A stretch of 64,000 nucleotides of DNA from a virus. The stretch lies in the IMG/VR virus record IMGVR_UViG_3300043122_000050; one strand, 5' to 3'. Positions within the stretch are counted from its first letter, which is position 1, and every line of letters begins with the position of its first letter. Below, piece after piece: positions 5,706-62,518 of this stretch. The translations under genes were made by a program, and so were the position numbers. The notes under the pieces were generated by a model. The model made no database searches, had not been told where the DNA came from, and was given only the letters and a program-made list of their open reading frames with translations.

Positions 5706-5993
5706 TTAACGCCAGTTTATCACTTCCAAGTCAACATCACAAGCCATACACCCAATAATAAACTTCTCCACGGCGTAATCTGGAAATCTTGTCCATCCAT
5801 ACCCGCGAGTGCTCGGGAACCGCTGTAAGTCTCCATCGCTAAGGACTTTCCTAAGAATATCTTTTTCTTTACCTGAAAAAGACGGGCAGAAATCTGCCTC
5901 CCAGTCAGGAGCCTTACCTCTAAGATCACTTGAGGTTCTTAGTACATGGCTACGTAAATTCCAATCAGTTACGTTAAGATATAGGTATAACAT
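5706..5993 (-). CDS. Hypothetical early protein, family L2. Start moved to the ATG at 5993
   Basis: TAGGAGGA RBS 5 nt before the ATG at 5993. The paralogs begin at the equivalent ..LYLY.. position. Confidence 0.6.
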   Translation of the reverse strand: MLYLYLNVTDWNLRSHVLRTSSDLRGKAPDWEADFCPSFSGKEKDILRKVLSDGDLQRFPSTRGYGWTRFPDYAVEKFIIGCMACDVDLEVINWR

Positions 5994-6222
5994 AGATATC
6001 CTCCTACATATCCACAGAACTACTCCAACGATTGCGTTTTTCCTTACGTTCTTTCCGAAACTCACGTTGTTTCTTCTTAGTGTCTTTCTTGTAAGAGTCA
6101 TACTCATACTGCTTATTGAATTCTTGTGCTTGCATGGTTTTCAAAATTAAATCTCCTGTTGATTGTGTTTAGGCTTACGTTTGTACTTTGTTCGATCACG
6201 CTGTACAGATGGTTTGTTGAAT

Positions 6223-6696
6223 TTATGTAGGTGTATTGCTACTGGGTTGTTCATCTTCAGTCCCTTCTTCCCCGACTTCTTCTTTTTCGTCTTTGTCACC
6301 TTCTCCCTCCAGAGCTTCATCAATCTTCTTGTTCAAGAGTTCAAGAGCTTTACCGCCAAGCTGTTTAGCTGGCTCACTCGTCAATACGTTGTATGTTACA
6401 CCACTCCCTACAATGATTGCAAGCTGTTGTTGTGTAGGAATTAGGTTGGCAATGCATACAAATACAATCCCTATAGGAGCACAAATCTTAGCAAGCTTTC
6501 GTGTCTTCACTGGAAAGCTCATGTTCCAGAAGTCTGTGAAATAATTTTTACGGCTCTCGCTGGCGGCAATACCACAGCCTATTGCCAACACAGGGATTGA
6601 AAACACAGAGAACCAGAACATATGTCCACCAATCATCATTAAGAAGCCGCCAAGACTCTCAGCCATTACAAACAAGTAAATCAAAAAGAATTCCAT
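6223..6696 (-). CDS. Membrane protein with about 4 TM helices and an acidic C-terminal tail
   Basis: GGAGGTG RBS. TAATG overlap with the upstream gene. Confidence 0.65.
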   Translation of the reverse strand: MEFFLIYLFVMAESLGGFLMMIGGHMFWFSVFSIPVLAIGCGIAASESRKNYFTDFWNMSFPVKTRKLAKICAPIGIVFVCIANLIPTQQQLAIIVGSGVTYNVLTSEPAKQLGGKALELLNKKIDEALEGEGDKDEKEEVGEEGTEDEQPSSNTPT

Positions 6697-7070
6697 TATT
6701 CACCTCCGTTATCAAAGTAATATTCCAATACCAATCCGCATCTAACATAAGCTGGAATCTCTGGGTTGTCAAGAGGAAAGCCTGCCAAGCTTTTGTAGCC
6801 TTCAATCTCAGCCCAATCCTTAACATCAATGTTACACACCTTTAACAATCTTTTCAAGTGTTTCGTTTCTGAACAGGGAGTATATGATGTAGGCAATCGA
6901 AACCCAATACGGCTAGCAAGCTCACGCCAATGGTTCTCATCTTGCCACGAGGTTTTTAGATTATCCTCAGCAAAGAGCTTCTTAGCAGCCTTTGAAGCCT
7001 TAGCCTTCTCTCGCATTTCAAGGCGTTGTTCTGGTGTTAAATTGGATAAGTAATCTTTATTCATTTGCAA
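6696..7070 (-). CDS. Hypothetical protein, 124 aa
   Basis: AAGGAGG RBS. Confidence 0.7.
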   Translation of the reverse strand: MQMNKDYLSNLTPEQRLEMREKAKASKAAKKLFAEDNLKTSWQDENHWRELASRIGFRLPTSYTPCSETKHLKRLLKVCNIDVKDWAEIEGYKSLAGFPLDNPEIPAYVRCGLVLEYYFDNGGE

Positions 7071-7551
7071 CCTCCTTAATCTTATCCCGAATCTGCTGGA
7101 TAGAGATTGGGGAGTAGTTAGTATTCTCTAAACAGCAATTGAAGTAGTTGATGTCTGGAATTGTACTACCATGTACATGACCATGCAAGTTAATTTTACC
7201 ACGAAGCTCTTGTGGGTGTAGAGGAGCATGACTCAACCAGAACTCTTTATACTTGATCAGCGAGTGAACACTGTCAAAGTGCTTTACAATCTCACTAATA
7301 TGTACATGCTCTGTGCAATGATTACCTAAAACCAACACCCTCTGTTCACCCACCCAACTACCAATATCTTCCAGACGTTCTTGTGTGAAAGCAATATCTC
7401 CCAAGAAGAACACCTTATCCCGTTTAGTTACAACTTTGTGGTAGTTCTCTTTAATAGTGTTAAAGTGTTCTTCTTCAGATTCAAAGGGACGATACTTACA
7501 AATGGTATTATGTCCACCGTGTATATCTGATATAAACCAAACATTAGCCAT
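7057..7551 (-). CDS. Calcineurin-like metallophosphoesterase
   Basis: Motifs SDIHGGH, LGDIAF, GNHC and HGHVHG occur in the canonical order. Confidence 0.8.
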   Translation of the reverse strand: MANVWFISDIHGGHNTICKYRPFESEEEHFNTIKENYHKVVTKRDKVFFLGDIAFTQERLEDIGSWVGEQRVLVLGNHCTEHVHISEIVKHFDSVHSLIKYKEFWLSHAPLHPQELRGKINLHGHVHGSTIPDINYFNCCLENTNYSPISIQQIRDKIKEVANE

Positions 7552-18229: not shown

Positions 18230-20152
18230 ATGCAGGAATATCTAGGTAAGGATGAGATTGTTTTTGACTGTGAAACAGACGGATTCAACGCAAGCAAGAT
18301 TCACGTTGTTAGTATTAGCAACGTGACAACAGGCTCAGAGCGCTCGTTTATTAAATATGATCAAATGCGGGCCTTCCTTGAGAACCCTGATGCCATTCTA
18401 ATTGCACATAACGTAGAGTCTTTCGATAAGCCAACTCTTGAGCGTGTGTTAGGTATTAAAATAAAAGCTACAGTTATTGATACGCTGGGCCTTTCTTGGT
18501 ACTTATACCCAACTCGACAGCTTCACGGACTTGCATCTTGGGGGGAAGATTTTGGAGTTCCTAAGCCGGAGGTTGAGGATTGGAATGATCAGCCAATAGA
18601 GGTGTACATCAACAGGTGTGAGGAGGATGTTAAGATAAACACAGCCCTATGGCTTAAGATTAAGAAAGACCTCCAAACTTTGTATGGTAAGGAAAACTTT
18701 TGGGTTGCTGTTGACTACATATGCTTCAAGATGAAGTGTGCAGCACTTCAAGAGAAGTGCAAGTGGAAGCTAGACGTAGAAAAAGCCAAAGCTCTCGTTT
18801 CAGAGTTTGAAAATAAAATTCAGGATAGTAAAAATACTCTACAGCAGGTTATGCCAAAAGTGCCTGTGTATGTAATCAAAAGCAGACCAAAAAAGCCCTT
18901 TAAAAAAGATAAAAGCTTGTCTTCTATTGGGGAATCTTGGAAAGCTTTATGCGAAGAGCATGGCTATGATTTTGACTATCAGGGAGAGATTAAGTATGTA
19001 AAAGGCTATGAAGAGCCTAATGGCGGGAGTCCTTTGCAGATAAAATCTTGGCTGTACGGTCTTGGCTGGGTTCCCCAACTATTTGTCTATAAGCGAAACA
19101 AAGAAACTGGGGAAGTTAAGAAGATTGAACAAATTAAGAATAAAGATACTGGCGACCTTTGCCCTGATATTGTACGTCTGATAGCTAAGACCCCGGAACT
19201 ACAAGTCTTAGAGGATTTGTCTGTGCTAAGTCATCGTAAATCTGTTGTTCAAGGATTCTTGGATGATGTTGATGAGCATGGTTTTATTGCCGCAAGGATT
19301 CAAGGGTTTACCAACACACTTAGATTTAGGCACAAGGTCTTTCTGAACATCCCTTCCCTAAGAAAGCCTTACGGGAAGGAGATTAGAGGGCTGCTTATTG
19401 CAAGAAGTCCTGATATGGAGCTTATGGGTGCGGACTGCTCTTCTTTGGAAGACAGGACTGGGCAACACTTCATGTGGAAGTATGATCCTGATTATGTAAA
19501 GGATATGATGCAAGATGATTTTGACCCGCACTGTGACATTGCTGCGGAGGCTGGCTTAATGACAGCAGATGAGGTATCTGCGTATAAAATAATGGATGCT
19601 AAGGATTTAAAGGAGGTTGATTATAACGGAAAACATTACATAAAGAAGGTACTAGCTCTGAAGCGTCACGCAGGTAAGTCTTGCAACTATGCCTCTAAGT
19701 ATGGTGCTGGAGGGCCAACTATTGCACGAGCTGCTGGCGTTACAGAAGCAACAGGGAATAAGCTCCATAAGGCTTATTGGAAGCGTAATTGGTCGCTAAA
19801 GAAAATTGCAGAAGACTGTGTAGTAAAACAGACTCTTGGTGTTAAGTGGCTATGGAATCCTATAGCAAATATGTGGTACTGGCTAAAAACGGATAAGGAT
19901 AAGTTCAGCACCCTTAACCAAGGGACAGGCACATTCTGTTTTGATATGTGGATTAAGGAAGTGCTTAAACGTCGTAGACAATTGACTGGCCAAGCTCACG
20001 ATGAGGGAATCTGGGAAGTAAAGAAGGGATACAGGGAGCAAGCTGCTAAACTCCTTAAAGATGCTATTCAAGAGGTAAACAAGCAGCTAAAACTAAATCG
20101 TGACCTTGACGTTGGTATTCAATTCGGGGAGAATTATGGGGAGATTCATTAA
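18230..20152 (+). CDS. Family A DNA polymerase with a 3'-5' exonuclease domain
   Basis: Exo I FDCETDG. Pol motif A DCSSLEDR, motif B KSCNYASKYG and motif C QAHDE. Confidence 0.9.
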   Translation: MQEYLGKDEIVFDCETDGFNASKIHVVSISNVTTGSERSFIKYDQMRAFLENPDAILIAHNVESFDKPTLERVLGIKIKATVIDTLGLSWYLYPTRQLHGLASWGEDFGVPKPEVEDWNDQPIEVYINRCEEDVKINTALWLKIKKDLQTLYGKENFWVAVDYICFKMKCAALQEKCKWKLDVEKAKALVSEFENKIQDSKNTLQQVMPKVPVYVIKSRPKKPFKKDKSLSSIGESWKALCEEHGYDFDYQGEIKYVKGYEEPNGGSPLQIKSWLYGLGWVPQLFVYKRNKETGEVKKIEQIKNKDTGDLCPDIVRLIAKTPELQVLEDLSVLSHRKSVVQGFLDDVDEHGFIAARIQGFTNTLRFRHKVFLNIPSLRKPYGKEIRGLLIARSPDMELMGADCSSLEDRTGQHFMWKYDPDYVKDMMQDDFDPHCDIAAEAGLMTADEVSAYKIMDAKDLKEVDYNGKHYIKKVLALKRHAGKSCNYASKYGAGGPTIARAAGVTEATGNKLHKAYWKRNWSLKKIAEDCVVKQTLGVKWLWNPIANMWYWLKTDKDKFSTLNQGTGTFCFDMWIKEVLKRRRQLTGQAHDEGIWEVKKGYREQAAKLLKDAIQEVNKQLKLNRDLDVGIQFGENYGEIH

Positions 20153-20682
20153 TGACTGAGGTGTGGAAGCCATTGCTTGACAAAGATGTACAGCAAAGGT
20201 ATGCTATTAGCAACTTAGGTAGGGTATTTGACCTTTTCAAAGTTTGCTATCTAAGGTGGCTCGATAACGGGGCTGGGTATAAAATAGTTGGGTTGCAAAG
20301 AAAGGATAAGAATAACGTATCAATGAGGTACGTGCACAGGCTAGTTGCGTTGCATTTTATACAAAATCCTGATAATCTACCTCAAGTTGGGCACAAAGAT
20401 CACGAAAAGGATAACAACAAAGAATCTAACTTGTACTGGACAACAGCAAAGCAAAACACTGCTGATGGTATAAGAGATGGCAGGATAAATGCTAAGAAAA
20501 GGCCGGGAACAAGAAAGCTAAGTAAGTCCGAAATTTGCTTTATCGCCTTATTAAAGGCTGAAGGTCTTGGGGTTAATGAAATTGCCAGAAAGATTGGTTG
20601 TCCAAGAACTACAGTATCTAGCGTGTTCAACAAAAGGTCTAATTGGGAATTGTTTTCTTTTGTTCTGGAAGAAGTTGGCTAA
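20152..20682 (+). CDS. Free-standing HNH_3/NUMOD4-type homing endonuclease abutting the polymerase stop codon
   Basis: The N-terminal W.P....Y.ISN.GRV, then HRLVALHFI.NP and a C-terminal HTH-like region resemble the intron-encoded ORFs at 46857 and 59288. TAATGA overlap with the polymerase gene. Confidence 0.7.
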   Translation: MTEVWKPLLDKDVQQRYAISNLGRVFDLFKVCYLRWLDNGAGYKIVGLQRKDKNNVSMRYVHRLVALHFIQNPDNLPQVGHKDHEKDNNKESNLYWTTAKQNTADGIRDGRINAKKRPGTRKLSKSEICFIALLKAEGLGVNEIARKIGCPRTTVSSVFNKRSNWELFSFVLEEVG

Positions 20683-22801: not shown

Positions 22802-23752
22802 ATGATGAAAAGAACTCTAATCATTGACGGTGATACGATTTTACATGCGTCAGCCGCCCAACAGCAGAAGAACCATTGTAAAGCAATAAATATTAAGTCT
22901 GGAGATGAGGAAGTTTGGCCTAGTAAAACAGATTTTAATAAGTGGCTAGCTGGACAAGAAGAGTGGGAGAAGACAGACTTTGTGTTTGATGTTGTTCCTG
23001 AGCTTACAGGGCATATTTCATTTGCTTGTAAGTCTATTAGAGAGAAGATTGACAAAATCTTTAACCGCTCTTATTGTGATGACTTCCTATTCATTCAACA
23101 AGGCTCTGGAAACTTCCGAAACTTCTATGAGAGTGAGTATGTCACTTACAAAGGACAGCGTGGGGCCAAACCTCTTTTGTTTGAGGAATGCTTTGAGTTT
23201 ACAAAGAAGAAGTATAAGGATAGATGCCTTGTCACTTCAGGAGTTGAGACTGATGATGTCGTTTGTACAATGGGGTGGGAGAGCTTCAACACTGCTGTAG
23301 AGAGTGGGAAGAAGTCACTGTCTCCGTATGTTATTGCCGCTGTCGATAAAGACATTCCTGCTAATACTCCCGGCTTCATGCTCAACTACGGGAAAGATGA
23401 TCCTATCTTTTGGAATACTAAGTTTAGTCAGACCAAGCAGTTTATGGCTCAATTGCTTAGAGGTGACAGTGCTGACTTTATTCCCGGCTTATCCGTTCTG
23501 TCAGAGGAATCTAAAAAGAAATATGGTATCAATAGAGATGGTATTGGCCCTGTAGCTGTTGAGAAGATTCTTGGGGGCTGTACAACAGAGAAAGAGCTTG
23601 CAGAGAATACAGTTGAATGCTATATATCAGCATGGCCTAACGACTGGAAAGCTAGATTGAATGATATGGGATTCTTCTTGTACTTGCTTAGACATGAGAA
23701 TGATAAGTGGGATGTTGATAGGTATTTTAAAGAGTTAGGAGTGAGCCTGTGA
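22802..23752 (+). CDS. 5'-3' exonuclease / flap endonuclease (FEN, PIN-like)
   Basis: N-terminal LIIDGDTILH, then VDKD, then GDSADFIPGL (compare GD.SDNIPG of 5'-3' exonucleases). Confidence 0.75.
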   Translation: MMKRTLIIDGDTILHASAAQQQKNHCKAINIKSGDEEVWPSKTDFNKWLAGQEEWEKTDFVFDVVPELTGHISFACKSIREKIDKIFNRSYCDDFLFIQQGSGNFRNFYESEYVTYKGQRGAKPLLFEECFEFTKKKYKDRCLVTSGVETDDVVCTMGWESFNTAVESGKKSLSPYVIAAVDKDIPANTPGFMLNYGKDDPIFWNTKFSQTKQFMAQLLRGDSADFIPGLSVLSEESKKKYGINRDGIGPVAVEKILGGCTTEKELAENTVECYISAWPNDWKARLNDMGFFLYLLRHENDKWDVDRYFKELGVSL

Positions 23753-24312
23753 GCAAGTTTGAACCGTGGCTCTTGTACCCTCACATCTGGAAGACTAAGA
23801 GTGCTTGGTTTAGTTGGCTTCGTGGAGGGATTCGTAGAAGCCTGTGGAATAAGTCTCCAATCAAGCTAGAATACATCAGGAATCATCGTAAACGTATTCC
23901 CAACCCCAATCCAAAGGGGAAGGTGGCAACAGTGTGGGGAGGCACGTGTGAGCTTTGTAAGAAGGATTTTGTGATAGCTCAGCTAGACGTTGACCATAAA
24001 CAAGGGAACCACTCCCTGAATGAGTTATCTGATATTCAAAACTTCATAGAAAACATTGTACTTACCACAGAAAATGATCTACAATTCGCTTGCAAGACGT
24101 GCCATAAAATTAAGAATCAACAAGAGAGGAAGGGAATCTCTTTTGAACAGGCATCTTATGAGAAGCTTGCCATCGATATGGAGAAGAAAAAGATGGTTAT
24201 TCCGTGGCTTGAGAGTAAGGGTGTTGTTCCAGCTAAGAACGCTAAGCTTAGACGTATTCAAGTAGTCGATACACTAAAGATCAACAAATTGAAGGAGGAT
24301 AATGATGGCTGA
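23749..24312 (+). CDS. HNH endonuclease-like protein
   Basis: CELCKK...DVDHKQGN....CKTCHKIKN: a Cys-pair/His-Asn-His arrangement. Confidence 0.6.
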   Translation: MSKFEPWLLYPHIWKTKSAWFSWLRGGIRRSLWNKSPIKLEYIRNHRKRIPNPNPKGKVATVWGGTCELCKKDFVIAQLDVDHKQGNHSLNELSDIQNFIENIVLTTENDLQFACKTCHKIKNQQERKGISFEQASYEKLAIDMEKKKMVIPWLESKGVVPAKNAKLRRIQVVDTLKINKLKEDNDG

Positions 24313-46698: not shown

Positions 46699-47716
46699 CG
46701 TTTGTGTTCAGGAGAGGTCGTTAATCTCTCCCCGCTTTATTCAAGCTGCTATATGTTTCCATATAGACCAGACTATATCTTGTTGCACATGTGCGCAACC
46801 TCACCATTTCCACTCACTTGAGTGTACGCCCGTAGGCTAGTCGTTGAAGTTTACAACTACCAACTATATTTACAAGATATATGTTTGAAACCTCTACGTC
46901 TTTTTATATCGTAGATATGATCAAGTTTCACACTCTTGTTTGTACACAAATCATAGATTTCTTTCGGGCCTACGCCCCTCTCTATCATTTGGCAAATCCA
47001 TTCCACCGTTTTCTCAGACAACCTTTCGGACTTAGCCTTTATTGGAATATCTGGTAAATTCTTTGTTATCTCAGTCCAGTTAGTTTTGGATTTAATCTCC
47101 ATAACTGCTGTTCTTGAAAGGTTGTACTCTTTAGCAAGATCAGAGTTTCTTGCCCCGTTATATAACTTCCAGTAAACCTCTAATACCTGATCACTAGATA
47201 GGATTGATCTACCGTTTGATTCTCCAACATTAGTGTTAAGTCCGTTAGAAAAAGCATGTTGCTGATTTTCTTCCCTTGTAACCCACTCTAGGTTTGATAA
47301 GGTATTATTTGTCTTAATCCCGTCAATGTGGTTGACTTCACTCTTAAAGTCTGGGTTTGGTATGTAAGTTAGAGCTACAAGTCTGTGTATCAGGAAAGCT
47401 CTAGCTACACCATCGTCACATTTAATATTAACCCTTAAATAGCCATTCCTAATGAGTCTGGGTTTCATTAACCTGTTTCTGTGAAGGCTAAAAACATTAC
47501 CCTGAGTATCTATCTTGTAGTTCTTTGCAAATGGAATTTCTTTCATATAATTCTCCTTACTTAGTCATTCTGGAGTTTGTAGTTGTCTTACCTGCTGATC
47601 GCCCAATCTTGACAATTTTCAAACATTCACGCTCGATATTACTATCCACGTTGTAGTTTGTCAAGCTCTAAGGGGTTTCCAGCAATTAAATGAGTTTAAA
47701 GTCAGCTATTATGTTA
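46699..47716 (-). mobile_element. Group I intron (T4 td-like core) in the tape measure gene, carrying a homing endonuclease ORF
   Basis: The 5' exon ends GUCAGU, which pairs with GCUGAC 10 nt into the intron (U.G at the splice site). The intron ends ..GAUUAACGACCUCUCCUGAACACAAACG. Conserved AACGACUA and GAUAUAGUCUGG blocks are present. Confidence 0.8.
46857..47546 (-). CDS. Intron-encoded HNH_3/NUMOD4-type homing endonuclease
   Basis: HRLVALTYIPNP and VNHIDG.K.NN..SNLEWVT motifs, with C-terminal HTH-like repeats. AAGGAGA RBS. Collinear with 59288..59971. Confidence 0.8.
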   Translation of the reverse strand: MKEIPFAKNYKIDTQGNVFSLHRNRLMKPRLIRNGYLRVNIKCDDGVARAFLIHRLVALTYIPNPDFKSEVNHIDGIKTNNTLSNLEWVTREENQQHAFSNGLNTNVGESNGRSILSSDQVLEVYWKLYNGARNSDLAKEYNLSRTAVMEIKSKTNWTEITKNLPDIPIKAKSERLSEKTVEWICQMIERGVGPKEIYDLCTNKSVKLDHIYDIKRRRGFKHISCKYSW

Positions 47717-51195: not shown

Positions 51196-51507
51196 TTATA
51201 CGAAAACTTTACCTTGGATTTTGACGTAGTGAATAGCGCCTGCTAGGCGAGCTTCAAAACTCAAGTCTTCCAAAGTACGGGTTGCACGGAGGTTAGGGTC
51301 AACAGCCAAAACATCAGGTACACTGATCACAGGAGCAGGACTATCAGCCAGGAAGTTATTACGAATACCTTCTTGAATCTGCGCTCTTACTTCTGCTTCA
51401 ATAATAGAAACTCCAGCCGCCGTATAGGCAATTTTTGAAGTATTAACCAAGCGGAACCAGATACGTTCACGCATACGAGCGGTTAGCCAAAGTACACCAA
51501 TCATAAC
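51196..51507 (-). CDS. Tail sheath-like structural protein (DUF3383-type), exon 2 of 2
   Basis: The frame is open upstream of the track's GTG start. The C-terminus ..RLAGAIHYVKIQGKVFV is typical of this family. Confidence 0.65.
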   Translation of the reverse strand, partial: VMIGVLWLTARMRERIWFRLVNTSKIAYTAAGVSIIEAEVRAQIQEGIRNNFLADSPAPVISVPDVLAVDPNLRATRTLEDLSFEARLAGAIHYVKIQGKVFV

Positions 51508-51840
51508 CGTTACTTTCACAAAGAGGCGTTAACTCTTTGCTGGTTTACTTTTACATAAACTCCACTCACACTTTCATGTAAGACAAGACTATATCTTCAC
51601 CCTCTTAACAAGTAGGGTGTCTCCCATTTCGCCTCACTTGAGGCTACGGCATTCCTGCCTAGTCGTTGAACCTTCCCCTCATCAGGGCTTGGCTGCTGAT
51701 TGCCACATAATGTATTGTTCTCAGACATTCACGCTTAACTATATCTCAAGTTTACGTTGTAGTCAACACACCTTCGCGGGATTCCAGCAATTAAAGAGAT
51801 TTTTCACTAACCAATTACTTGATTAGGCGACCTTTTTCAA
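51508..51840 (-). mobile_element. ORF-less group I intron (333 nt) in the sheath-like gene
   Basis: Shares UUUAAUUGCUGGAA, CUACAACGU, AGCGUGAAUGU, AACGACUAG and GAUAUAGUCUUG blocks with the TMP intron. The 5' exon ends in U (UCGAU/GUCG P1). The intron ends ..AGUAACG. Confidence 0.75.
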
Positions 51841-52800
51841 ATCGACAAATTCACCACCAACCATCTTACCGTTAGTAGTTGCGTTTACACCACCAATGTT
51901 CTCATAAGTGTTTACGTTCTTATTAAGAAGATTGACAGTTTCAGTACCAGTTAGTTTATCTACCGAAGTACCAGTGAGGGTTTTATAAGCCCAAGTGTTA
52001 CTGCCCGGAAGAGGTTGAATCTGATAAGCAGTCCAAGCACACTCTGGATAGTTAGCATCGGCATCGGCTTTCCACATGATAGCTGTCTTGTTATAACCAA
52101 GGTCTTTCAGTTGGGAGGCAACGTCAGTGGTTACAGCAGTTTTGACAGCAGCAGAGTTGGTGGAAGTGATATACACTTTCTCACGAGCTTCAATGGCTTC
52201 AGCCAGCTCAAGGATAACAGCGTCAGAATGATCTTCAGCGTTCAGTGCAATCCATTGGTTGTTAGAGAACTCAACAGCGGTGAGGGCGTCAGACCAACTT
52301 TCAGTGGATGCTTTCTTAACAATACTTAGGTTGCTAGAAGTAGTGATACTCCACTCAGCACCCGGCACTGCAACATCAACTTCAAAAGTACCGTCAAGGT
52401 TGTCTGTGAAGTTTACACCAGTGATTTGGAGTTCGGCAGCTACAGCCAGATCAAGAGCAGTGATAATCTCAATGGCAGTGGCAGAAGCATCAGAGGTGAT
52501 TGCAACCTTGACACCATTAATGGTTACGCTATACTCGGTGCTATTAGAAACAGTAGCAACAGTACCGTCTACACCATCAATCTGCTTACGGCCAATGATT
52601 ACAGAGGCTGGAACAAGCTCTTGACCAAAGTAACGAAGACCAGCTTCATATACCGAGGAACCAGAACGGAAATCTTCAGCGAGAGCGCCAAAGGATGTAT
52701 ATGTACGTGTACGTTCAGCGAACGCTGTATGCTCAGCCAAGAAAAGAGGGATGTTAAAAGCAGCTCTACTTACTGCTTGTGTCTCCCTGCTGATGCTCAC
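51841..52800 (-). CDS. Tail sheath-like structural protein, exon 1 of 2, GTG start without an obvious RBS
   Basis: Ends ..NGKMVGGEFVD and joins to VMIGVLWLTARM.. in exon 2. Total 423 aa. Confidence 0.65.
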
Positions 52801-52857: not shown

Positions 52858-53568
52858 CTATTTGTTTAAGTATTGATTTTTGATGTAAGTAACAAGTACA
52901 TCGGTCAATTCTTTGTTGATTCCGCCTGAAACGAAACTGAAGTTGTGTACTTCAAAATGACATTCTCGGCAAAGAGTTACAAGGTTGGTTTCTTCATACA
53001 CCAATTCTTCGTTTCCACGAAAGGGTAGTATATGGTGTGCATTTAATTGGCACCCCTTATTATTGCAAAGAACACAGGTGAATGAGTCCCTTTCAAAAAT
53101 CTTACGAGAGAGTCTTCCACCAGTTTCACGTTTCTTAATTAGAGTTTCTGGATCAAGACCTAATGACGCTCTGTATTTCCTAAATCTTTCCTTCTGCGAT
53201 TCTGTAGCCCTCTCTAGTCTGAGACATCCACAACTTTGACTTTCACCAGCTTTTAATGTTCTCAGTTCTACTAAGGCGGTTCCACCGCAATCACAGATAC
53301 ATTCGCAAAGTCTTTTACCAGTATCTTGCCTGTTAGTTACAACTAATCTACCAAACCTATTGCCCACAGGGTCTTCTACAGGCCGAGCTTTACTCTTAGA
53401 GATGCAGCCGCAACTTTTAAATATTCCCAGTTTAGATTTTGATACAACTGTAGAGTTTCCACAAATACATAAGCAATTGTAGTACATTCGCTTAAATTTT
53501 TCATGTATGCCCGCCTCGGAGACGACTGTAAGATAGTTATAGGTTTCCCCTATTTCAACTTTTCTCAA
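52858..53568 (-). CDS. Free-standing HNH endonuclease
   Basis: CVLCN...NAHHILPF......NLVTLCRECH..VH, plus several N-terminal CxxC-like pairs. Confidence 0.8.
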   Translation of the reverse strand: MRKVEIGETYNYLTVVSEAGIHEKFKRMYYNCLCICGNSTVVSKSKLGIFKSCGCISKSKARPVEDPVGNRFGRLVVTNRQDTGKRLCECICDCGGTALVELRTLKAGESQSCGCLRLERATESQKERFRKYRASLGLDPETLIKKRETGGRLSRKIFERDSFTCVLCNNKGCQLNAHHILPFRGNEELVYEETNLVTLCRECHFEVHNFSFVSGGINKELTDVLVTYIKNQYLNK

Positions 53569-56990: not shown

Positions 56991-58355
56991 TTAAGATTTT
57001 GCTTTATTAAGTTGAGCTTTCAGAATCTTTGCTGTATCGCTCAGGGCTTCTTCATCGCCTTGATCACCTACGCCCAGTTCTTTAAACAGGTCAGTTGCCT
57101 CGACGGCTTTTGCTTTCTTCTCAAAGGAGCCAGCTACAGTGTCAAATGCAGCATCTTCCAGCGAGCCAAGGGAAGCCATCAAAGCCTCCGCTTCTTCTTT
57201 ACCAACACTTGCTTCCAGACGAGCTTGACGAGCATCTAGTTTGGCTTGTGCGGCTACAGCTTCAGCTTCCAAACGAGCAGCTTCAGCTTCTGCTTGGAAT
57301 TGAGCCATCTGTTCTTTAATAGAGGTGGCTTCTGCCTGTGCAGCAGTCATAGCTTCAACAGCCTGTGTCAGTTGCGCCTCCATCTGAGTTTTTTCATCAG
57401 TCAGGGCAGCAAAAGCGGCCTGAAGTTCTACGAGTTCTTGCATTTTGGCAGTATCCCCTTGTTTCGATTTATTTAGAAAACGAGCAGTAAGCATTTTGGA
57501 ATTAGTCTCCCCACTTGCTACGGTTGATAGATAAGAGTAGAATTCTTCAACTTCCATAGCTTTATCAGCCAAGCCAAGTTGAATAGCCTTATCGGCAAGG
57601 AATGTCTTAGCCTCTGTGTTAGTCACAGCTTCAGGAGTCATTCCTCTCATTTGAGCAACATGGGAAGTAAATTCCCCATAGAGCACGTTAACCTTCTCTT
57701 GAAGGTCACTAAGAAACTCTTCTGCGAAGTCGCCTTCAGCATTAAAAGGAATCTTAGATTTACCAGCAAAAACATAAGTGTCTTCAACACCCATTGTCTT
57801 CATTGCTTTATTGGTATTACGAAGTCTGACAACAACACCAATACTTCCCACTTCAGCAGAAGGGTTCATGATGATTTCATCAGAGATAGAAGCTAGAGCA
57901 TAAGCAGCAGAAGCAGCCATACCGTCTACATAAGTAATCACTTTAACGCCAGCTTCATCAGCCATTGTGCGAATACGTTTAGCAGATTCAAATACACCGT
58001 AAGCTTCACCACCGGGACTATCTGTATCAAACACAATAGTCTTTGCACCAGAGCTAATCAGCGACTCTACGTCAGCAAGCATACTTTGATAGCTTGTTGG
58101 AGATTCGCCACACATAGGTTGGTAGTGCAAGTAAGTAAGTGGCCCTTTAAGCTCTACAATCCCTACCTTGGTATCGGAGTTGTAAATAAGCTCACGGCTT
58201 TCACTCTTAGCTTTATTTTCAAGAGCTAGCTGAATCTCTCCAGCATTACGATCTTCCAGAAGGGAGGCAATCTTTTCAAAGTATTGAGCCTCCATCATCT
58301 GAGGTGTTGCAACAAGCTTATTTGTTAGCCTAATAAGACTATGAGCTTTTGACAT
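56991..58355 (-). CDS. S49-family (SppA/ClpP-like) head maturation protease fused to a coiled-coil scaffold domain
   Basis: VFDTDSPGGE and GMAASAAYALAS (catalytic Ser region). The C-terminal half is an Ala/Glu/Gln-rich coiled coil. Confidence 0.85.
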   Translation of the reverse strand: MSKAHSLIRLTNKLVATPQMMEAQYFEKIASLLEDRNAGEIQLALENKAKSESRELIYNSDTKVGIVELKGPLTYLHYQPMCGESPTSYQSMLADVESLISSGAKTIVFDTDSPGGEAYGVFESAKRIRTMADEAGVKVITYVDGMAASAAYALASISDEIIMNPSAEVGSIGVVVRLRNTNKAMKTMGVEDTYVFAGKSKIPFNAEGDFAEEFLSDLQEKVNVLYGEFTSHVAQMRGMTPEAVTNTEAKTFLADKAIQLGLADKAMEVEEFYSYLSTVASGETNSKMLTARFLNKSKQGDTAKMQELVELQAAFAALTDEKTQMEAQLTQAVEAMTAAQAEATSIKEQMAQFQAEAEAARLEAEAVAAQAKLDARQARLEASVGKEEAEALMASLGSLEDAAFDTVAGSFEKKAKAVEATDLFKELGVGDQGDEEALSDTAKILKAQLNKAKS

Positions 58356-59105
58356 TAACTGTTCTCCAGATTATCTGTAGAGTTGTCTTGACCGGCGACA
58401 CTATCACTAGTACCATTACCAGAACCTTTAGCCATTCCATCTCCAGCTCTGCTTCTATTTTGAGGAAGCAAATCTTCATCCACTGGCTGATCTTTAGGGT
58501 AAGGAGTAGCACCAAAGCCTCTCTCACGAATGATGTTGGCAATCTCACGATCAAACTCAATAGCATTTACGGAGAAAATACGTTGTACAAGTTTACTGAA
58601 CTCATCCAAGTCTTCTTCGTCAAGGTCGGTGTAGGTGAACTTAGGAAGCTCTTCATCATCCCAGCCATTCAGGGCGAATGTTTGAGGGATAAGGTCTTTG
58701 TTAAGAACATCTGCAATCTCACGAAGGCGAGCTTCAATGGCCATAGCCATGATGGATGTTTTAGCGCCAGCAAGGGCAAAAGAGCCTACTTGATCTTGAC
58801 CAAGTTTTAGGAAGTCAGCAAACAAAGAAGTGAGGATTTTGTAGTCCCAACGTGTGATAATTGCTGATGTGTCATATTGCTTACCAGAAGCAACAGACAA
58901 GAGTTCAAACTCAAATAGAGGTTGTCTTGATTCAGGATCATATGCGTTTGGAAGGACAATACCGGATTGTTCATTACGTTCAAGGTTTCTCACCATGTTG
59001 TAATAATAATCACGGATAGATTTCTGTTCTTCTGTAGCATCGGGGCTAAGATAGATGGCAGGAATTTTTATTACAGGAGTTCCCACCATATTTCGGGTAA
59101 TTCCA
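58355..59105 (-). CDS. Portal protein, exon 2 of 2
   Basis: The frame is open to 59105 (..(I)GITRNMVGTPVIKIPA..). Overlaps the protease start by 1 nt (TAATG). Confidence 0.75.
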
Positions 59106-60125
59106 CGCTTGTTCGACGAAGATCGTTACACTTCGCCCGTTCTCTTATGAACTGCTGCATGTTTCCATGCAGGCCAGACTATATCATCACCCTTCTACTT
59201 GAGTTAGGGTGCCTACCATTTCCACCCACTTGGGTGTACTCCCTTGCGGGATAGTCGTTGGACGCTTACGATTGAATTGCTGATTATTTAAAAGTTATAT
59301 TCTTTAGAGATATTTGTGTAGATTTTCCTTTTACGCAAACCATGTAGAAGGTTGGCATTAATTTCGGAATTTCTACTTTCCGAGATTATCTCGGCGTTTG
59401 TCTTACCTTCGGCAATAAGATCACAAACCCATCTTATAGTGCTTTCGGAGAACCTTTTAGCTCTGTTTACTTGAATATTGTATTCTTTTGAAATGTGTCT
59501 CCATGCTTTCTTAGCACGAACCATTGATATAAAAGAACGATGAACACCTGTGGTGCGCTCTATGTCAATGTTCCGCATACCGCTCTGAAGCAGTTCACAC
59601 ACTTCTCTTACTTCTGCTTCTGTGTACTTTGAGAGGTAGTGGTTTTCACCAATACTATTGTCAAGTAACCCATTCTCATGGGCATGTTCATAATTACCTT
59701 TATGACTAACCCACTCAAGGTTTTCTACACAGTTATTAAGCTTGTTACCATCTTTATGGTTAACGAGAGGTAGACTGTCTACGTTAGGGACAAAAGCTTC
59801 TGCCACAAGTCTGTGTACAGAGTGTTTCTTAACGCTTCCATCTTTGTAGTAAATAGCGACTCTTGCATACCCGGCATTTGAAATATCGGGAGTAAGTGCT
59901 GCACCAGTCTGACCAATCACTGCACCATCTTCAGTAACGAAGTAGTTATCAGTTTTTGCAATTCTTTTCATTTAAGCCTCCTACAGATTCGGAAGCAATT
60001 CAATCGTTTTCGCTCAGGATTACCCACGACATCACTCGTTTGGGCTTCCCCTGAATTAGATAGGTTTTGGAGCTAGGCTCCGAGGTCATCATACCAGATT
60101 TCTCTGTGTATGCCACTAGAAGTTA
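59106..60125 (-). mobile_element. Group I intron in the portal gene, carrying a homing endonuclease ORF
   Basis: P1 is GCCAU/GUGGC (U.G at the splice site, 9-nt loop). A 5-bp P10 forms between UGGAA of exon 2 and UUCUA next to the guide. The core blocks AACGACUAUCCC, CAAGUGGG and GAUAUAGUCUGG are present. The intron ends in G. Confidence 0.85.
59288..59971 (-). CDS. Intron-encoded HNH_3/NUMOD4-type homing endonuclease
   Basis: HRLVAEAFVPN and VNHKDGNKLNN..ENLEWVS motifs. TAGGAGG RBS. Full-length paralog of 46857..47546. Confidence 0.8.
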   Translation of the reverse strand: MKRIAKTDNYFVTEDGAVIGQTGAALTPDISNAGYARVAIYYKDGSVKKHSVHRLVAEAFVPNVDSLPLVNHKDGNKLNNCVENLEWVSHKGNYEHAHENGLLDNSIGENHYLSKYTEAEVREVCELLQSGMRNIDIERTTGVHRSFISMVRAKKAWRHISKEYNIQVNRAKRFSESTIRWVCDLIAEGKTNAEIISESRNSEINANLLHGLRKRKIYTNISKEYNF

Positions 60126-60850
60126 ATGGCCTCTTGTTCTTCTATTCCAGTGCGGTATTTCCATGCAAGCCAAGCATTCTTTAGCATACTTGAACCTTCA
60201 GGGTTATCCCTCTCAGGGTTCACTCTAAAAAGCATAAACTTGTTCCTAGGGATCGTAATAACATTACCATTACGAGCACTTAGGGAGTTGTATCTACCGT
60301 ACTGATTAACCGTTGTGAGGTCTTGCTCTACAGCTTGTAAGTCTCTACCATCGTCACTAAATACCCAACCAGAGATTGTATCTTGTGAGCGAATAGGAAG
60401 TTTCTTCCAGCCAATCAATCCATCATTGAATTTAGAGCCTGTAGCTTTAAGGCGTCTTCGATACACCTTCTCTTGTACAGAGAATCCATAGACATAGCTA
60501 CTAGATACGTCTTGGATGAATGAGGCCCAAGTAGCCTCCATATCGTCTGTACATTGCTGAAGGAATGCAGCCTTCTTTTCTTGTTCTGGTGTAGCCCCTT
60601 TAGGCGCTTCCACTTTCCAATCAATCCGTGCTAACATCATTTTATAGAGGTTGATTGCACTGTTGATTGTAGCGTCTTTCTGCATATTCTTGTAAGTGTT
60701 GATAACCTTTGGCCATCGTAGCTCTGTACGAGCTTCTTCAAGAATAACTTTATTACTGACTTTTAATCCGGTTGTACCTACTTCACCCATTCTAATTCTG
60801 GGTACAGAGGCATCTCCTGATTCTAGTCCAGCAGTATCAAGCTCTGCCAT
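60126..60850 (-). CDS. Portal protein, exon 1 of 2
   Basis: TAGGAGG RBS. Immediately downstream of terL. Ends ..YRTGIEEQEA(I). Exons 1 and 2 together give 491 aa. Confidence 0.75.
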
Positions 60851-60858
60851 CTAACCTC

Positions 60859-62177
60859 CTAAACATGGAATGGGTTTTCTCTTTGCATATTAGGTAATAC
60901 GAAAGAGGTGGGTATTTGTGCTGATCTTGCTAAGTGTTTGAATGCGTCTGAGCAGGAGTCAACGATATCGTCCTTGACCTTGCGGCTACCGTCAAAAGCT
61001 TCTAGTTCGTCAACCAATTCATCATTCCACGGCCCTCTCACCATCGAAACATGCTTAGCTTCAGCTACAGCAGCGAATGGTTGGAATCTCAGCACTTTGG
61101 ATTGACTTGCTTGATAGATACGTGCATAGAAACCACGTTCAGCAAGCTCTTTAACGATTGACTGAGCGTAAGCTTTACCAGCAGCTCCGGGGTCAGCAGG
61201 GATTACAATATCTGTTGTTGGGCCATCATGAATGGCTGTCTGGATAATCTTCTCCAGAACACCATGTGCTCTATCTCTAAAGCGTTCAAGGTCTTCAATG
61301 TAGTAACGTCCATACTTATCTCTGGACATTAGAACACCAGCAGTCCAGTCTGGATTTGGATTAGATTCGGAAGGAATACTTCCGCTAATATCCCAAGCCC
61401 TTACTCTCTTCATGATATGATCTGTTGGCCTTGTAGGGACAATCTCTAACCAATCCCCTTTGAAGTAGCCAGCGGCCTCTTCTTTAGCATACCAAGAGCC
61501 GTCTAGAAGACGCATCCTCTCGATACGTTTCAAACCAAGCAAGAATGCTAGGTATTTAGGGTTCTTCTGAATGCCAATTGGGTTATCATACACATTAGCA
61601 CTTACAAATGTCATAGAGAGGATGTGTTCCTCTTTAATATGTGGAACCTTCTTTAGCATCTCCTCTTTAGTAAGAGCAAACACAGGTTTACCGCCATCGT
61701 TTGTGAAGAAGCGGATTACACCGTCCTTCTCTGGCAGAGGAATCCCTGTCTCTGGGTCAAGGTGCCATTCCACCCAGTTACGGAGAAAGGAGTTGTACAG
61801 AGGGTTACAAGTCATTACTAGCTGACTGCTCATTTGTGCTTTAGAACGCAAACGAGACATTAGATAGAGAACACTTACTTCTTGTTGGTGTTGAGCTTCG
61901 TCAAACACTACGAGAGAATATTGTCCACCGTCGAAGTTATATCTGTCTTCTGGTCTATCAAGGCCAGCAAAACTAATCACTGCCCCGCTTGGGAAAGTTG
62001 CTGAGAGTTTCTGTTCGTGAAACTTTGGCTTGAACGGTTTATACATCTGTTTGGCTTCATCAAACAAGCCACCAGATTGTGTTAGTTGTGTACGTGTCTG
62101 TCGAATAAACACAGCACGGAAATGAGGGTCGCCAATTTGACCTAGTGCTTTAAGTAGAGCACAATGTGATTTACCAC
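60859..62177 (-). CDS. terL: Terminase large subunit, exon 2 of 2
   Basis: Begins in mid Walker A (..GKSHCALL). Walker B VVFDEAQ. C-terminal nuclease-type acidic residues (AWDISGS, DDIVDS). Confidence 0.85.
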
Positions 62178-62424
62178 CATGATTGTTCAAGAAAGTTCGT
62201 TACTCTTTCTCCGCTTTCGCAGCTACATATTCCTATGCAGACCAGACTATATCATCATCCCGTAGGATGCCCACCGCTTCCACTCACTTGAGTGTACTCC
62301 CTTTCGGGATAGTCGTTACGCTTTCTGAAATTAATCAGCTTAGCTCGGTATTGTCCGTTCTGGAGTTTCACCGAATTCAATGGGTTATTCGATCAACATT
62401 ACTGTTGAAAGGGACTGTAGGTCA
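62178..62424 (-). mobile_element. Compact ORF-less group I intron (about 247 nt) inside the terL Walker A codons
   Basis: P1 is GGGAU/GUCCC (9-nt loop, U.G at the splice site). Core AACGACUAUCCCGAAAGGGAGUACACUCAAGUGAGUGG...GAUAUAGUCUGG. The 3' boundary was chosen so that the ligated exons read GGGAGCGKS. Confidence 0.7.
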
Positions 62425-62518
62425 ATCCCGCGCCGCCGCCGAAAATTATAATGTCAGCAGGACAGTTTAAAAACATCTTTTGTTTCGGGCTTGAAGGCCC
62501 ATAAGCTTGATTTGTCAA
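62425..62518 (-). CDS. terL: Terminase large subunit, exon 1 of 2 (31 codons plus 1 nt), TTG start
   Basis: AAGGAGG RBS 6 nt upstream of the TTG. Reads (M)TNQAYGPSSPKQKMFLNCPADIIIFGGGAG. This ORF is not in the supplied track. Confidence 0.7.

Follow-up and report, generated by a model that had tools for sequence, protein, structure and literature searches.

A group I intron with a predicted I-HmuI-like HNH endonuclease gene in the portal gene of a Felix O1-like phage

We analyzed a stretch of viral DNA of 64,000 nucleotides (IMG/VR record IMGVR_UViG_3300043122_000050; the whole stretch is called the window below) and concentrated on its portal gene, which lies on the minus strand and is interrupted by a group I intron. 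Exon 1 of the portal gene (60126..60850) comprises codons 1-241 and two nucleotides of the codon for Ile242. Exon 2 (58355..59105) runs from the last nucleotide of this codon to the stop codon. Both exons were delimited with the list of open reading frames (ORFs), by in silico splicing and by alignment. The intron between them is of the IA2-like type and has 1020 nt, from a U at 60125 to the terminal G (omega-G) at 59106. These coordinates are exact and follow from an Rfam match, from the junction defined by protein homology and from a consensus fold. Within the intron lies an ORF of the same strand for a protein of 227 aa (59288..59971), which is predicted to be a homing endonuclease of the I-HmuI-like HNH type (HNH_3).

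The portal reading frame that opens at 60850 passes the end of exon 1, ...GAGGCCAU at 60126 (in frame GAG GCC AU), enters the intron at UAACUUCUAGUGGC and continues for three more codons to a stop 9 nt into the intron. At 59105, where the intron has ended with ...AAGCG and exon 2 begins with UGGAAUUACC, the portal sequence is taken up again by a second ORF that runs in the same direction. Joining 60126 to 59105 in silico keeps the frame and yields a portal protein of 491 aa, the spliced frame reading ...EEQEAIGITRNMVGTP... across the joint. In a large protein collection this spliced protein finds hundreds of uninterrupted portal proteins of about 490 aa (PF06074), one of which is 98% identical. 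The junction is free of gaps in an alignment with 13 uninterrupted homologs and is located inside the motif IEEQEAIG, in which I236, E237, E238, E240, A241 and G243 are invariant among these homologs. Moving the cut by one nucleotide would give the same mRNA. Group I introns obey the rule that exon 1 ends in U and the intron in G, and only one choice of the cut, the one already made in a preliminary description of this DNA, combines these two features. The terminal G is found in all six complete orthologs of the intron, and exon 1 ends in U in all orthologs.

The pairings expected at group I splice sites can be read at these positions. P1 is formed by the exon 1 end GCCAU (60126-60130) and the internal guide sequence GUGGC (60112..60116, minus strand; intron nt 10-14), which begins 9 nt into the intron, with a U.G pair at the splice site; A60117 can give P1 a sixth pair with U1 of the intron. 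P10 guides of group I introns lie immediately 5′ of the P1 guide. Here UUCUA (60117..60121, minus strand; intron nt 5-9) occupies this place and can pair with the start of exon 2, UGGAA (59101-59105), over 5 bp including one G.U. On one sequence a lone 5-bp pairing is not significant, since GUGGC is fully paired by 9 sites in about 1.3 kb and UUCUA by 11 sites in about 1.2 kb. The two pairings gain significance because the independently defined protein junction coincides with them, because orthologs show compensatory changes and because of a register control. For this comparison we used six distinct complete orthologous introns and one additional 5′ half, all from metagenomic phage contigs. 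The insertion point is the same in all orthologous portal introns. P1 reads GCCAU/GUGGC in six orthologs and GCCGU/GCGGC in the seventh (L012), a compensatory change from A-U to G-C. For P10, 25 of 30 cells are paired in the proposed register compared with 5-20 in every shifted register, and position 4 is A-U, U-A or C-G in different ortholog lineages. Judged by these comparisons P1 is secure and P10 moderately well supported. The preliminary description had proposed the group I intron, both splice sites, P1 and P10. All of these are confirmed at the positions given there: for the intron by Rfam, in-frame splicing, the gap-free alignment, intron-less alleles and a covarying fold, for the splice sites by the coincidence of the homology-defined junction with P1 and P10.

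The Rfam model RF00028 matches positions 59155-59362 with 53.5 bits (gathering score 50, E = 9e-11). The part of this match which Rfam takes as P1-P2 (59300-59362) was rejected, as it is forced inside the 3′ end of the ORF and the true 5′ end of the intron is at 60125. With the ORF removed, RNAalifold folds the six orthologous introns into a common structure with P1, P2, P2.1, P3, P4, P5/P5a, P6, a P6a of 14 bp, P7.1, P7.2, P8, P9, P9.1 and P9.2. To this structure the P7 pseudoknot and three in-register P10 pairs were added before the pairing was tested. Standard pairs make up 97.9% of 569 cells, compared with 36-42% (about 39%) when the 3′ partners are slid, and 54 of 98 pairs have changes on both sides; in 500 shuffles none of the five observed measures was ever reached. 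P3, P4, P5, P6, P7 and P8 are each 100% paired and each carry compensatory changes, so that the P3/P7 pseudoknot is supported. The contrast with the slid registers and the number of double changes are far beyond what relatedness alone would give. A further helix of 3 bp (helix 10), which would sequester part of the ribosome-binding region of the ORF, is not claimed, as its pairing reaches just 83% and double changes are absent from it.

In the window, the 5′ part of the ribozyme (59972..60111, minus strand) contains P2, P2.1, the 5′ strand of P3 (60059-60064), P4-P5-P5a, P6, the 5′ strand of P6a (59994-60007) and a Shine-Dalgarno sequence GGAGG (59977-59981). The 3′ part (59106..59287, minus strand) contains the 3′ strand of P6a (59268-59281), P6′, the 5′ strand of P7 (59252-59256), P7.1 (59240-59251), P7.2 (59223-59236), P3′ (59212-59217), P8, the 3′ strand of P7 (59177-59181), P9, P9.1, P9.2 and the omega-G. 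P7.1 and P7.2 between P7 and P3′ are the hallmark of subgroup IA, and because both are present, P7.2 with covariation at 4 of 5 pairs, we assign the portal intron to this subgroup. The ORF is contained in the loop closed by P6a, a helix with covariation at 11 of its 14 pairs. The ORF is therefore best described as a peripheral insertion in an otherwise complete ribozyme.

The 3′ core of the intron is a widespread sequence. A near-DNA search of a phage collection found no relative of the phage itself, and just about 150 nt of the 3′ core matched, a stretch common to many unrelated phage introns; with megablast the core matches T4-like and many other phage introns. In wastewater runs the read depth at 59124-59285 rises to values from hundreds to about 17,000, compared with about 15-35 in the flanks, because many unrelated phage introns share this stretch. 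Contigs break here, and assemblies around introns of this kind are likely to become fragmented or chimeric for this reason. In run X26, one contig joins window position 59263 to 60012, and where the ORF would be it has 27 unrelated nucleotides which make up a small hairpin (CTTAGCTAGATTATATTCTAGCTCTTG). It may be an ORF-less relative of the portal intron or another intron whose core is similar.

The ORF in the P6a loop is preceded by its own Shine-Dalgarno sequence, the GGAGG mentioned above. Its product has an N-terminal beta domain, an HNH motif (H53...N71 H72...N80...N93) and two C-terminal helical repeats. Pfam recognizes HNH_3 (PF13392) with 37.5 bits (cut-off 24.8), and by sequence the only match of known structure is I-HmuI (PDB 1U3E; residues 9-106, E = 4e-12). 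An AlphaFold (AF2) model built from 46 family members (predicted local distance difference test score 89.7) likewise led with Foldseek to 1u3e (E = 1.8e-7, 162 aligned columns) and to no other significant match. H53, N71, H72, N80, N84, N93 and H96 are invariant across the 46 family members. The C-terminal half of the protein is an internal duplication of a helical module of about 55 residues ending in ISKEYN (E = 4e-10), in agreement with the helix-turn-helix (HTH) repeats that had been noted there. By family and modelled fold we predict that the product is an I-HmuI-like HNH endonuclease. A scan of viral contigs with this ORF gave no match, and a scan of metagenome contigs gave distant family members only, with at most 57% identity (at most 35% over the full length).

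The same portal gene, but lacking the intron, is found on three contigs from independent samples (L001-L003). Over the exons these contigs match the DNA of the window at 97-100% identity, apart from a tract directly after the junction. Within this tract, +1..+40 of exon 2 (59066..59105, minus strand), the window differs from the intron-less allele L001, whose portal protein is 98% identical, at the twelve positions +1, 4, 7, 10, 13, 16, 22, 25, 28, 31, 37 and 40. All twelve differences are silent, and they affect 12 of the first 14 wobble positions, as compared with a background of 2.1% elsewhere (binomial P ~1e-10). Within 60 nt of the junction exon 1 differs at -5 and -26 only. A comparison by eye with L004 and L009 indicates that both alleles are derived in the tract, the intron-less allele with at least four unique states. 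We presume that the tract is the recognition region of the endonuclease or a region of co-conversion. It fits co-conversion from a divergent donor and, as well, escape from an endonuclease that binds exon 2, and these readings are inseparable here.

Contigs from public sequencing runs place the identical intron-plus allele in a shale-gas metagenome and variants of about 97% identity in wastewater, sediment and freshwater. The read depth over the intron is 18.5 in run X6, compared with about 100-200 over the exons, and 10.9 in run X4, compared with 23-30. Because the intron depth is well below the exon depth in both runs, genomes with and without the intron coexist there. The element is thus present in some and absent from others of otherwise near-identical genomes, and it is by this pattern that a mobile element is recognized.

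The portal gene has a second intron site close by. Five contigs (L009, L005-L008) have two portal introns: an ORF-bearing intron at the site described so far (site A), a mini-exon of 33 nt (GIVRNMVGTPV) and an ORF-less intron of 265 nt at site B. In L009 the HNH-ORF intron, the mini-exon and the ORF-less intron are located at 5843-6855, 6856-6888 and 6889-7153. The P1 of the ORF-less intron is CCGU/GCGG, and its Rfam scores range from 54 to 83 bits. In two others, L096 (3780-4900) and L101 (2760-3960), site A is uninterrupted and the intron at site B (+33) holds an HNH ORF of a sister clade, 36-38% identical to the window ORF; here the exon ends in CCCGU and the guide is GCGG. Contigs of the sequencing runs break at 59072, which is position +33, and their loose ends resemble the 3′ end of a site-B intron. 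The silent tract of the window spans both sites. This suggests that the elements at site A and site B may interact through overlapping targets.

Taken together, it is very probable that the portal gene of this Ounavirinae-like (Felix O1-like) myovirus carries, at 60125..59106 (minus strand), a mobile IA2-type group I intron with an HNH homing endonuclease, and that the endonuclease gene represents one of three site-specific lineages in this genome. We suggest that the element operates in the following steps. The transcribed RNA would fold into the canonical ribozyme. The exon 1 sequence GCCAU would pair with the guide GUGGC in P1, placing the U.G pair at the cleavage site, and an exogenous guanosine would attack after the U. 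The adjacent guide UUCUA could then hold the start of exon 2, UGGAA, in P10, the terminal G would dock, and ligation of the exons would give the mRNA for the portal protein of 491 aa (...EEQEAIGITR...). The ORF, looped out of P6a and served by its own Shine-Dalgarno sequence, would be translated into a monomeric I-HmuI-like HNH endonuclease. By analogy the target of this enzyme could be a long asymmetric site that lies mostly in exon 2 of portal alleles without the intron, and the nick would be placed near the insertion site. In a mixed infection, recombinational repair from an intron-plus genome would finally copy the intron and some of the flanking exon into the recipient. Catalytic splicing, the activity and position of nicking, and homing are what we infer from the features of the locus.

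The two other endonuclease lineages are found at the genes of the tape measure protein (TMP) and the DNA polymerase. The TMP gene contains a group I intron of 1018 nt (46699..47716, minus strand) with a P1 GUCAGU/GCUGAC, a terminal G and a sub-threshold Rfam score of 32.4 bits; its HNH ORF for 229 aa (46857..47546, minus strand), identified by BLASTP and Pfam, lies in the P6a loop. The third ORF, for 176 aa, is free-standing (20152..20682, plus strand), codes for an HNH_3/NUMOD4 endonuclease with a single C-terminal HTH and abuts the stop codon of the DNA polymerase. As the preliminary description had stated, the portal ORF is collinear with the TMP ORF over its whole length (32% identity, E = 1e-39, BLASTP) and related to the shorter free-standing ORF (34% identity over 131 residues, E = 7e-15). 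The portal and TMP ORFs are each 30-34% identical to the polymerase-flank ORF over about 130-150 residues. From these alignments the homology of the three ORFs is real, and they can be regarded as members of one broad family. The preliminary description went further and had a single endonuclease lineage colonize all three sites, that is, one gene recently spread within the genome. Such a spread would fit the facts that the portal and TMP ORFs have the same domain order and nearly the same length (227 and 229 aa), that both are looped out of P6a in introns belonging to one RNA family, and that all three proteins are of the HNH_3/NUMOD4 type. However, the identity is just 32-34%, and more than 120 database proteins outscore the TMP ORF against the portal ORF. 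Every closer relative of the portal ORF whose context was read (P0123, P0124, P0125, P0126, P0127 and P0128; 46-54% identity) occupies the same portal site in another phage, and relatives at 36-38% identity occupy the portal site 33 nt downstream. Relatives of the TMP ORF, from 98% down to 33% identity among the matches listed, include two that were checked (L097, L099), and both lie between the halves of a TMP gene (TMP_3). The free-standing ORF, with its different and shorter C-terminus, has a 77% identical ortholog in Pseudomonas phage vB_PsaM_M1 (Ounavirinae, seawater), which starts at the DNA polymerase stop codon as it does in the window. A neighbor-joining bootstrap tree puts the portal and TMP ORFs into separate clades of one family of about 225 aa, with the polymerase-flank pair outside (86% bootstrap). 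The RNAs do not fit a recent spread either: the 5′ halves of the two introns are unrelated except for a local match of 33 nt, and the 3′ cores share 71% identity, which does not exceed their similarity to the cores of ORF-less introns. The 3′ end of the TMP intron is nearly identical to that of the portal intron of L009. Compared in this way, the two intron RNAs are not specifically related. Spread within the genome is thus largely refuted, and we give it hardly any probability. The sequence comparisons point instead to three old and separate site-specific lineages, shared with other phages and assembled in one mosaic genome. The term paralog, as used in the preliminary description for the portal and TMP endonucleases, holds only in the sense of distant family membership, because each ORF has closer relatives at the same site in other phages; recent duplicates they are not, the window ORFs not being each other's closest relatives. 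The earlier observation and the reading of P1 and P10 were accurate, and the evolutionary inference was overstated.

Several points weigh against the reading as a splicing and mobile intron of one of three lineages. RF00028 truly matches the 3′ core of the portal intron only, because the ORF splits the model, and the gathering score is barely passed; the 5′ half was recognized by the comparative fold and not by Rfam. The covariation set is small, with six distinct sequences, from whose alignment part of the structure had itself been derived. Of the six orthologs, three have a P10 of only 3-4 bp. In I-HmuI the catalytic His directly follows an Asp, whereas in the clade of the portal ORF the residue before H72 is an invariant Asn (N71), and therefore activity or metal use could differ. 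Support for deep nodes in the protein tree is weak (35% and 14% for the labelled clades); what sets the portal clade apart from the TMP clade is therefore mainly the ranking by identity and the genomic context. The exon-exon joint was not seen in four RNA-type wastewater libraries, which show an even, DNA-like coverage of the intron, appear to contain phage DNA and are hence uninformative. With no spliced RNA observed in these libraries, one could argue for a decayed insertion which no longer splices, the portal being made as two polypeptides that assemble, like the split NrdA of Aeh1 (PMC7344957). Exon 1 does meet a stop shortly after the splice site, and an ATG in frame follows 16 nt behind the start of exon 2. 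Yet compensatory changes keep the complete ribozyme fold intact in lineages whose ORFs share no more than about 46-54% identity, and P1, the omega-G, P7 and conserved core sequences of the J8/7 type are all retained. A viable split of the portal is moreover unlikely because the break falls inside an invariant motif. We therefore consider a decayed insertion most improbable. The intron could also splice while its endonuclease is kept mainly as a weapon (interference or marker exclusion) against co-infecting intron-less relatives, which would make the element beneficial and not purely selfish. This would be in line with gp210 of PhiPA3, which inhibits a competing phage by nicking its intron-less gene (PMC11620839), with the occurrence of intron-plus and intron-less alleles in the same samples, and with the several uniquely derived silent changes of the intron-less allele in the presumed target, as expected under escape from cleavage. 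Ordinary homing fits these observations equally well, though, and the silent tract is explained equally by co-conversion from a divergent donor; a role primarily as a weapon seems rather unlikely to us. A related and tentative idea, which we hold to be doubtful, is that the segment encoding EAIGITRNMVGTPV is a battleground of the two sites. The tract would then reflect endonuclease-driven diversifying selection on synonymous sites, by escape and by mutual disruption of targets, with the endonucleases as weapons between co-infecting relatives, and not simple co-conversion.

The portal intron, read as a mobile intron with a homing endonuclease, resembles several known systems. The introns that interrupt the DNA polymerase genes in SPO1 and SP82, which encode I-HmuI and I-HmuII, and that of Bastille, which encodes I-BasI, are likewise phage group I introns in an essential conserved gene with a monomeric endonuclease whose HNH domain is N-terminal. 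For endonucleases of the I-HmuI type there is a precedent for nicking in exon 2 (PMC3428280), and the silent tract on the exon 2 side in the window fits this precedent. The host gene differs, as the window intron resides in a portal and not in a DNA polymerase gene, and in a lineage of Felix O1-like phages of Gram-negative hosts. The window protein is about 50 residues longer than I-HmuI and has two tandem C-terminal helical repeats instead of one HTH; sequence similarity is confined to residues 9-106, and nicking by the window protein is suggested by analogy. The introns of I-BasI and I-HmuI were considered as a precedent for two nearby sites and dropped, as both are at the same position (PMC3428280).

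The td intron of T4 with I-TevI shares with the window intron P7.1 and P7.2 (IA2) and an ORF with its own ribosome-binding site. As in the window, the I-TevI ORF is looped out of P6a. The endonuclease here is of the HNH and not of the GIY-YIG type, and the host gene is structural and not one of nucleotide metabolism. Other group I introns, often with HNH ORFs and with splicing verified by RT-PCR, are present in the terminase and polymerase genes of Pectobacterium phage CB7, in the terminase gene of Shewanella phage KASIA and in capsid and tail genes of Cluster J mycobacteriophages (PMC7344957, PMC8541194, PMC3706429). CB7 also resembles the window in that one of its genes holds two introns and in that it has numerous free-standing HNH genes. 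Portal-gene introns of this lineage did not turn up in the literature library that we searched, a statement that is limited to this library. PhiPA3 gp210 is an I-HmuI-like HNH nickase encoded by an intron and acts on the homologous intron-less gene of a related phage (PMC11620839). Roles of I-HmuI-type nickases in homing and in phage competition are established (PMC3428280, PMC11620839). Compared with the window protein, gp210 comes from a jumbo phage, its host gene is that of the vRNAP and it is not an ortholog at the sequence level. A role of the window protein in competition is hypothetical.

For annotation it follows that the portal, terminase, sheath and tape measure genes of the window will be mis-called as split or truncated unless the introns are recognized. 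Mechanistically the portal intron is an ordinary member of its class, and the understanding of how group I introns or HNH homing endonucleases work is unchanged. What it offers is a well-populated series of alleles and an arrangement of two sites, not a new mechanism. As a mobile intron in a structural gene of the virion it provides a clean example from nature, and it supplies a set of I-HmuI-like predicted nickases in which the DNA-binding repeat is duplicated and for which a candidate target is defined. The natural alleles that occur in the same and in related populations (intron-plus, intron-less, with both introns, and with the endonuclease in the second intron) could be useful for the study of homing, co-conversion and target-site escape in the wild.

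In addition to the portal intron, Rfam finds three more group I introns in the window, all on the same strand, in the terminase gene, in the sheath gene and, below threshold, in the TMP gene. The large terminase gene carries an ORF-less intron of about 247 nt (62178-62424, minus strand; Rfam 65.8 bits at 62223-62434) in the region of Walker A (...FGGGAG / CGKSH...). By eye its P1 is GGGAU/GUCCC, and the listed ORF 60859-62190 is exon 2 alone. The best Rfam match of the window (106.6 bits, 51565-51850) belongs to an ORF-less intron of about 333 nt (51508-51840, minus strand) in a tail-sheath-like gene with the exons 51841-52800 and 51196-51507, and its P1, again by eye, is CGAU/GUCG. Further free-standing HNH ORFs (Pfam PF01844) are located at 52858-53568 (minus strand) and 23749-24312 (plus strand). 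Counting all of these, the window contains four group I introns and no fewer than five genes for HNH endonucleases.

The terminase region is also varied among the related contigs. L009 (2795-5113) and L010 (884-3202) encode a large terminase of 772 aa with a LAGLIDADG_3 domain, which in L009 is probably an intein. Just upstream of the terminase L009 has a group I intron match (2522-2747 listed; 89.6 bits) and a free-standing NUMOD4/HNH_3 ORF. L001 shows a group I intron match of 60.2 bits at the 3′ end of the terminase ORF and, between terminase and portal, an ORF for 179 aa without a Pfam match (1506-1736 and 1762-2301 listed); neither of them is present there in the window. Upstream of the terminase, relatives have arrays of tRNA genes, in L004 at 105-2456 with about 18 tRNA matches, in L005 at 729-1049 and in L009 at 1197-1268.

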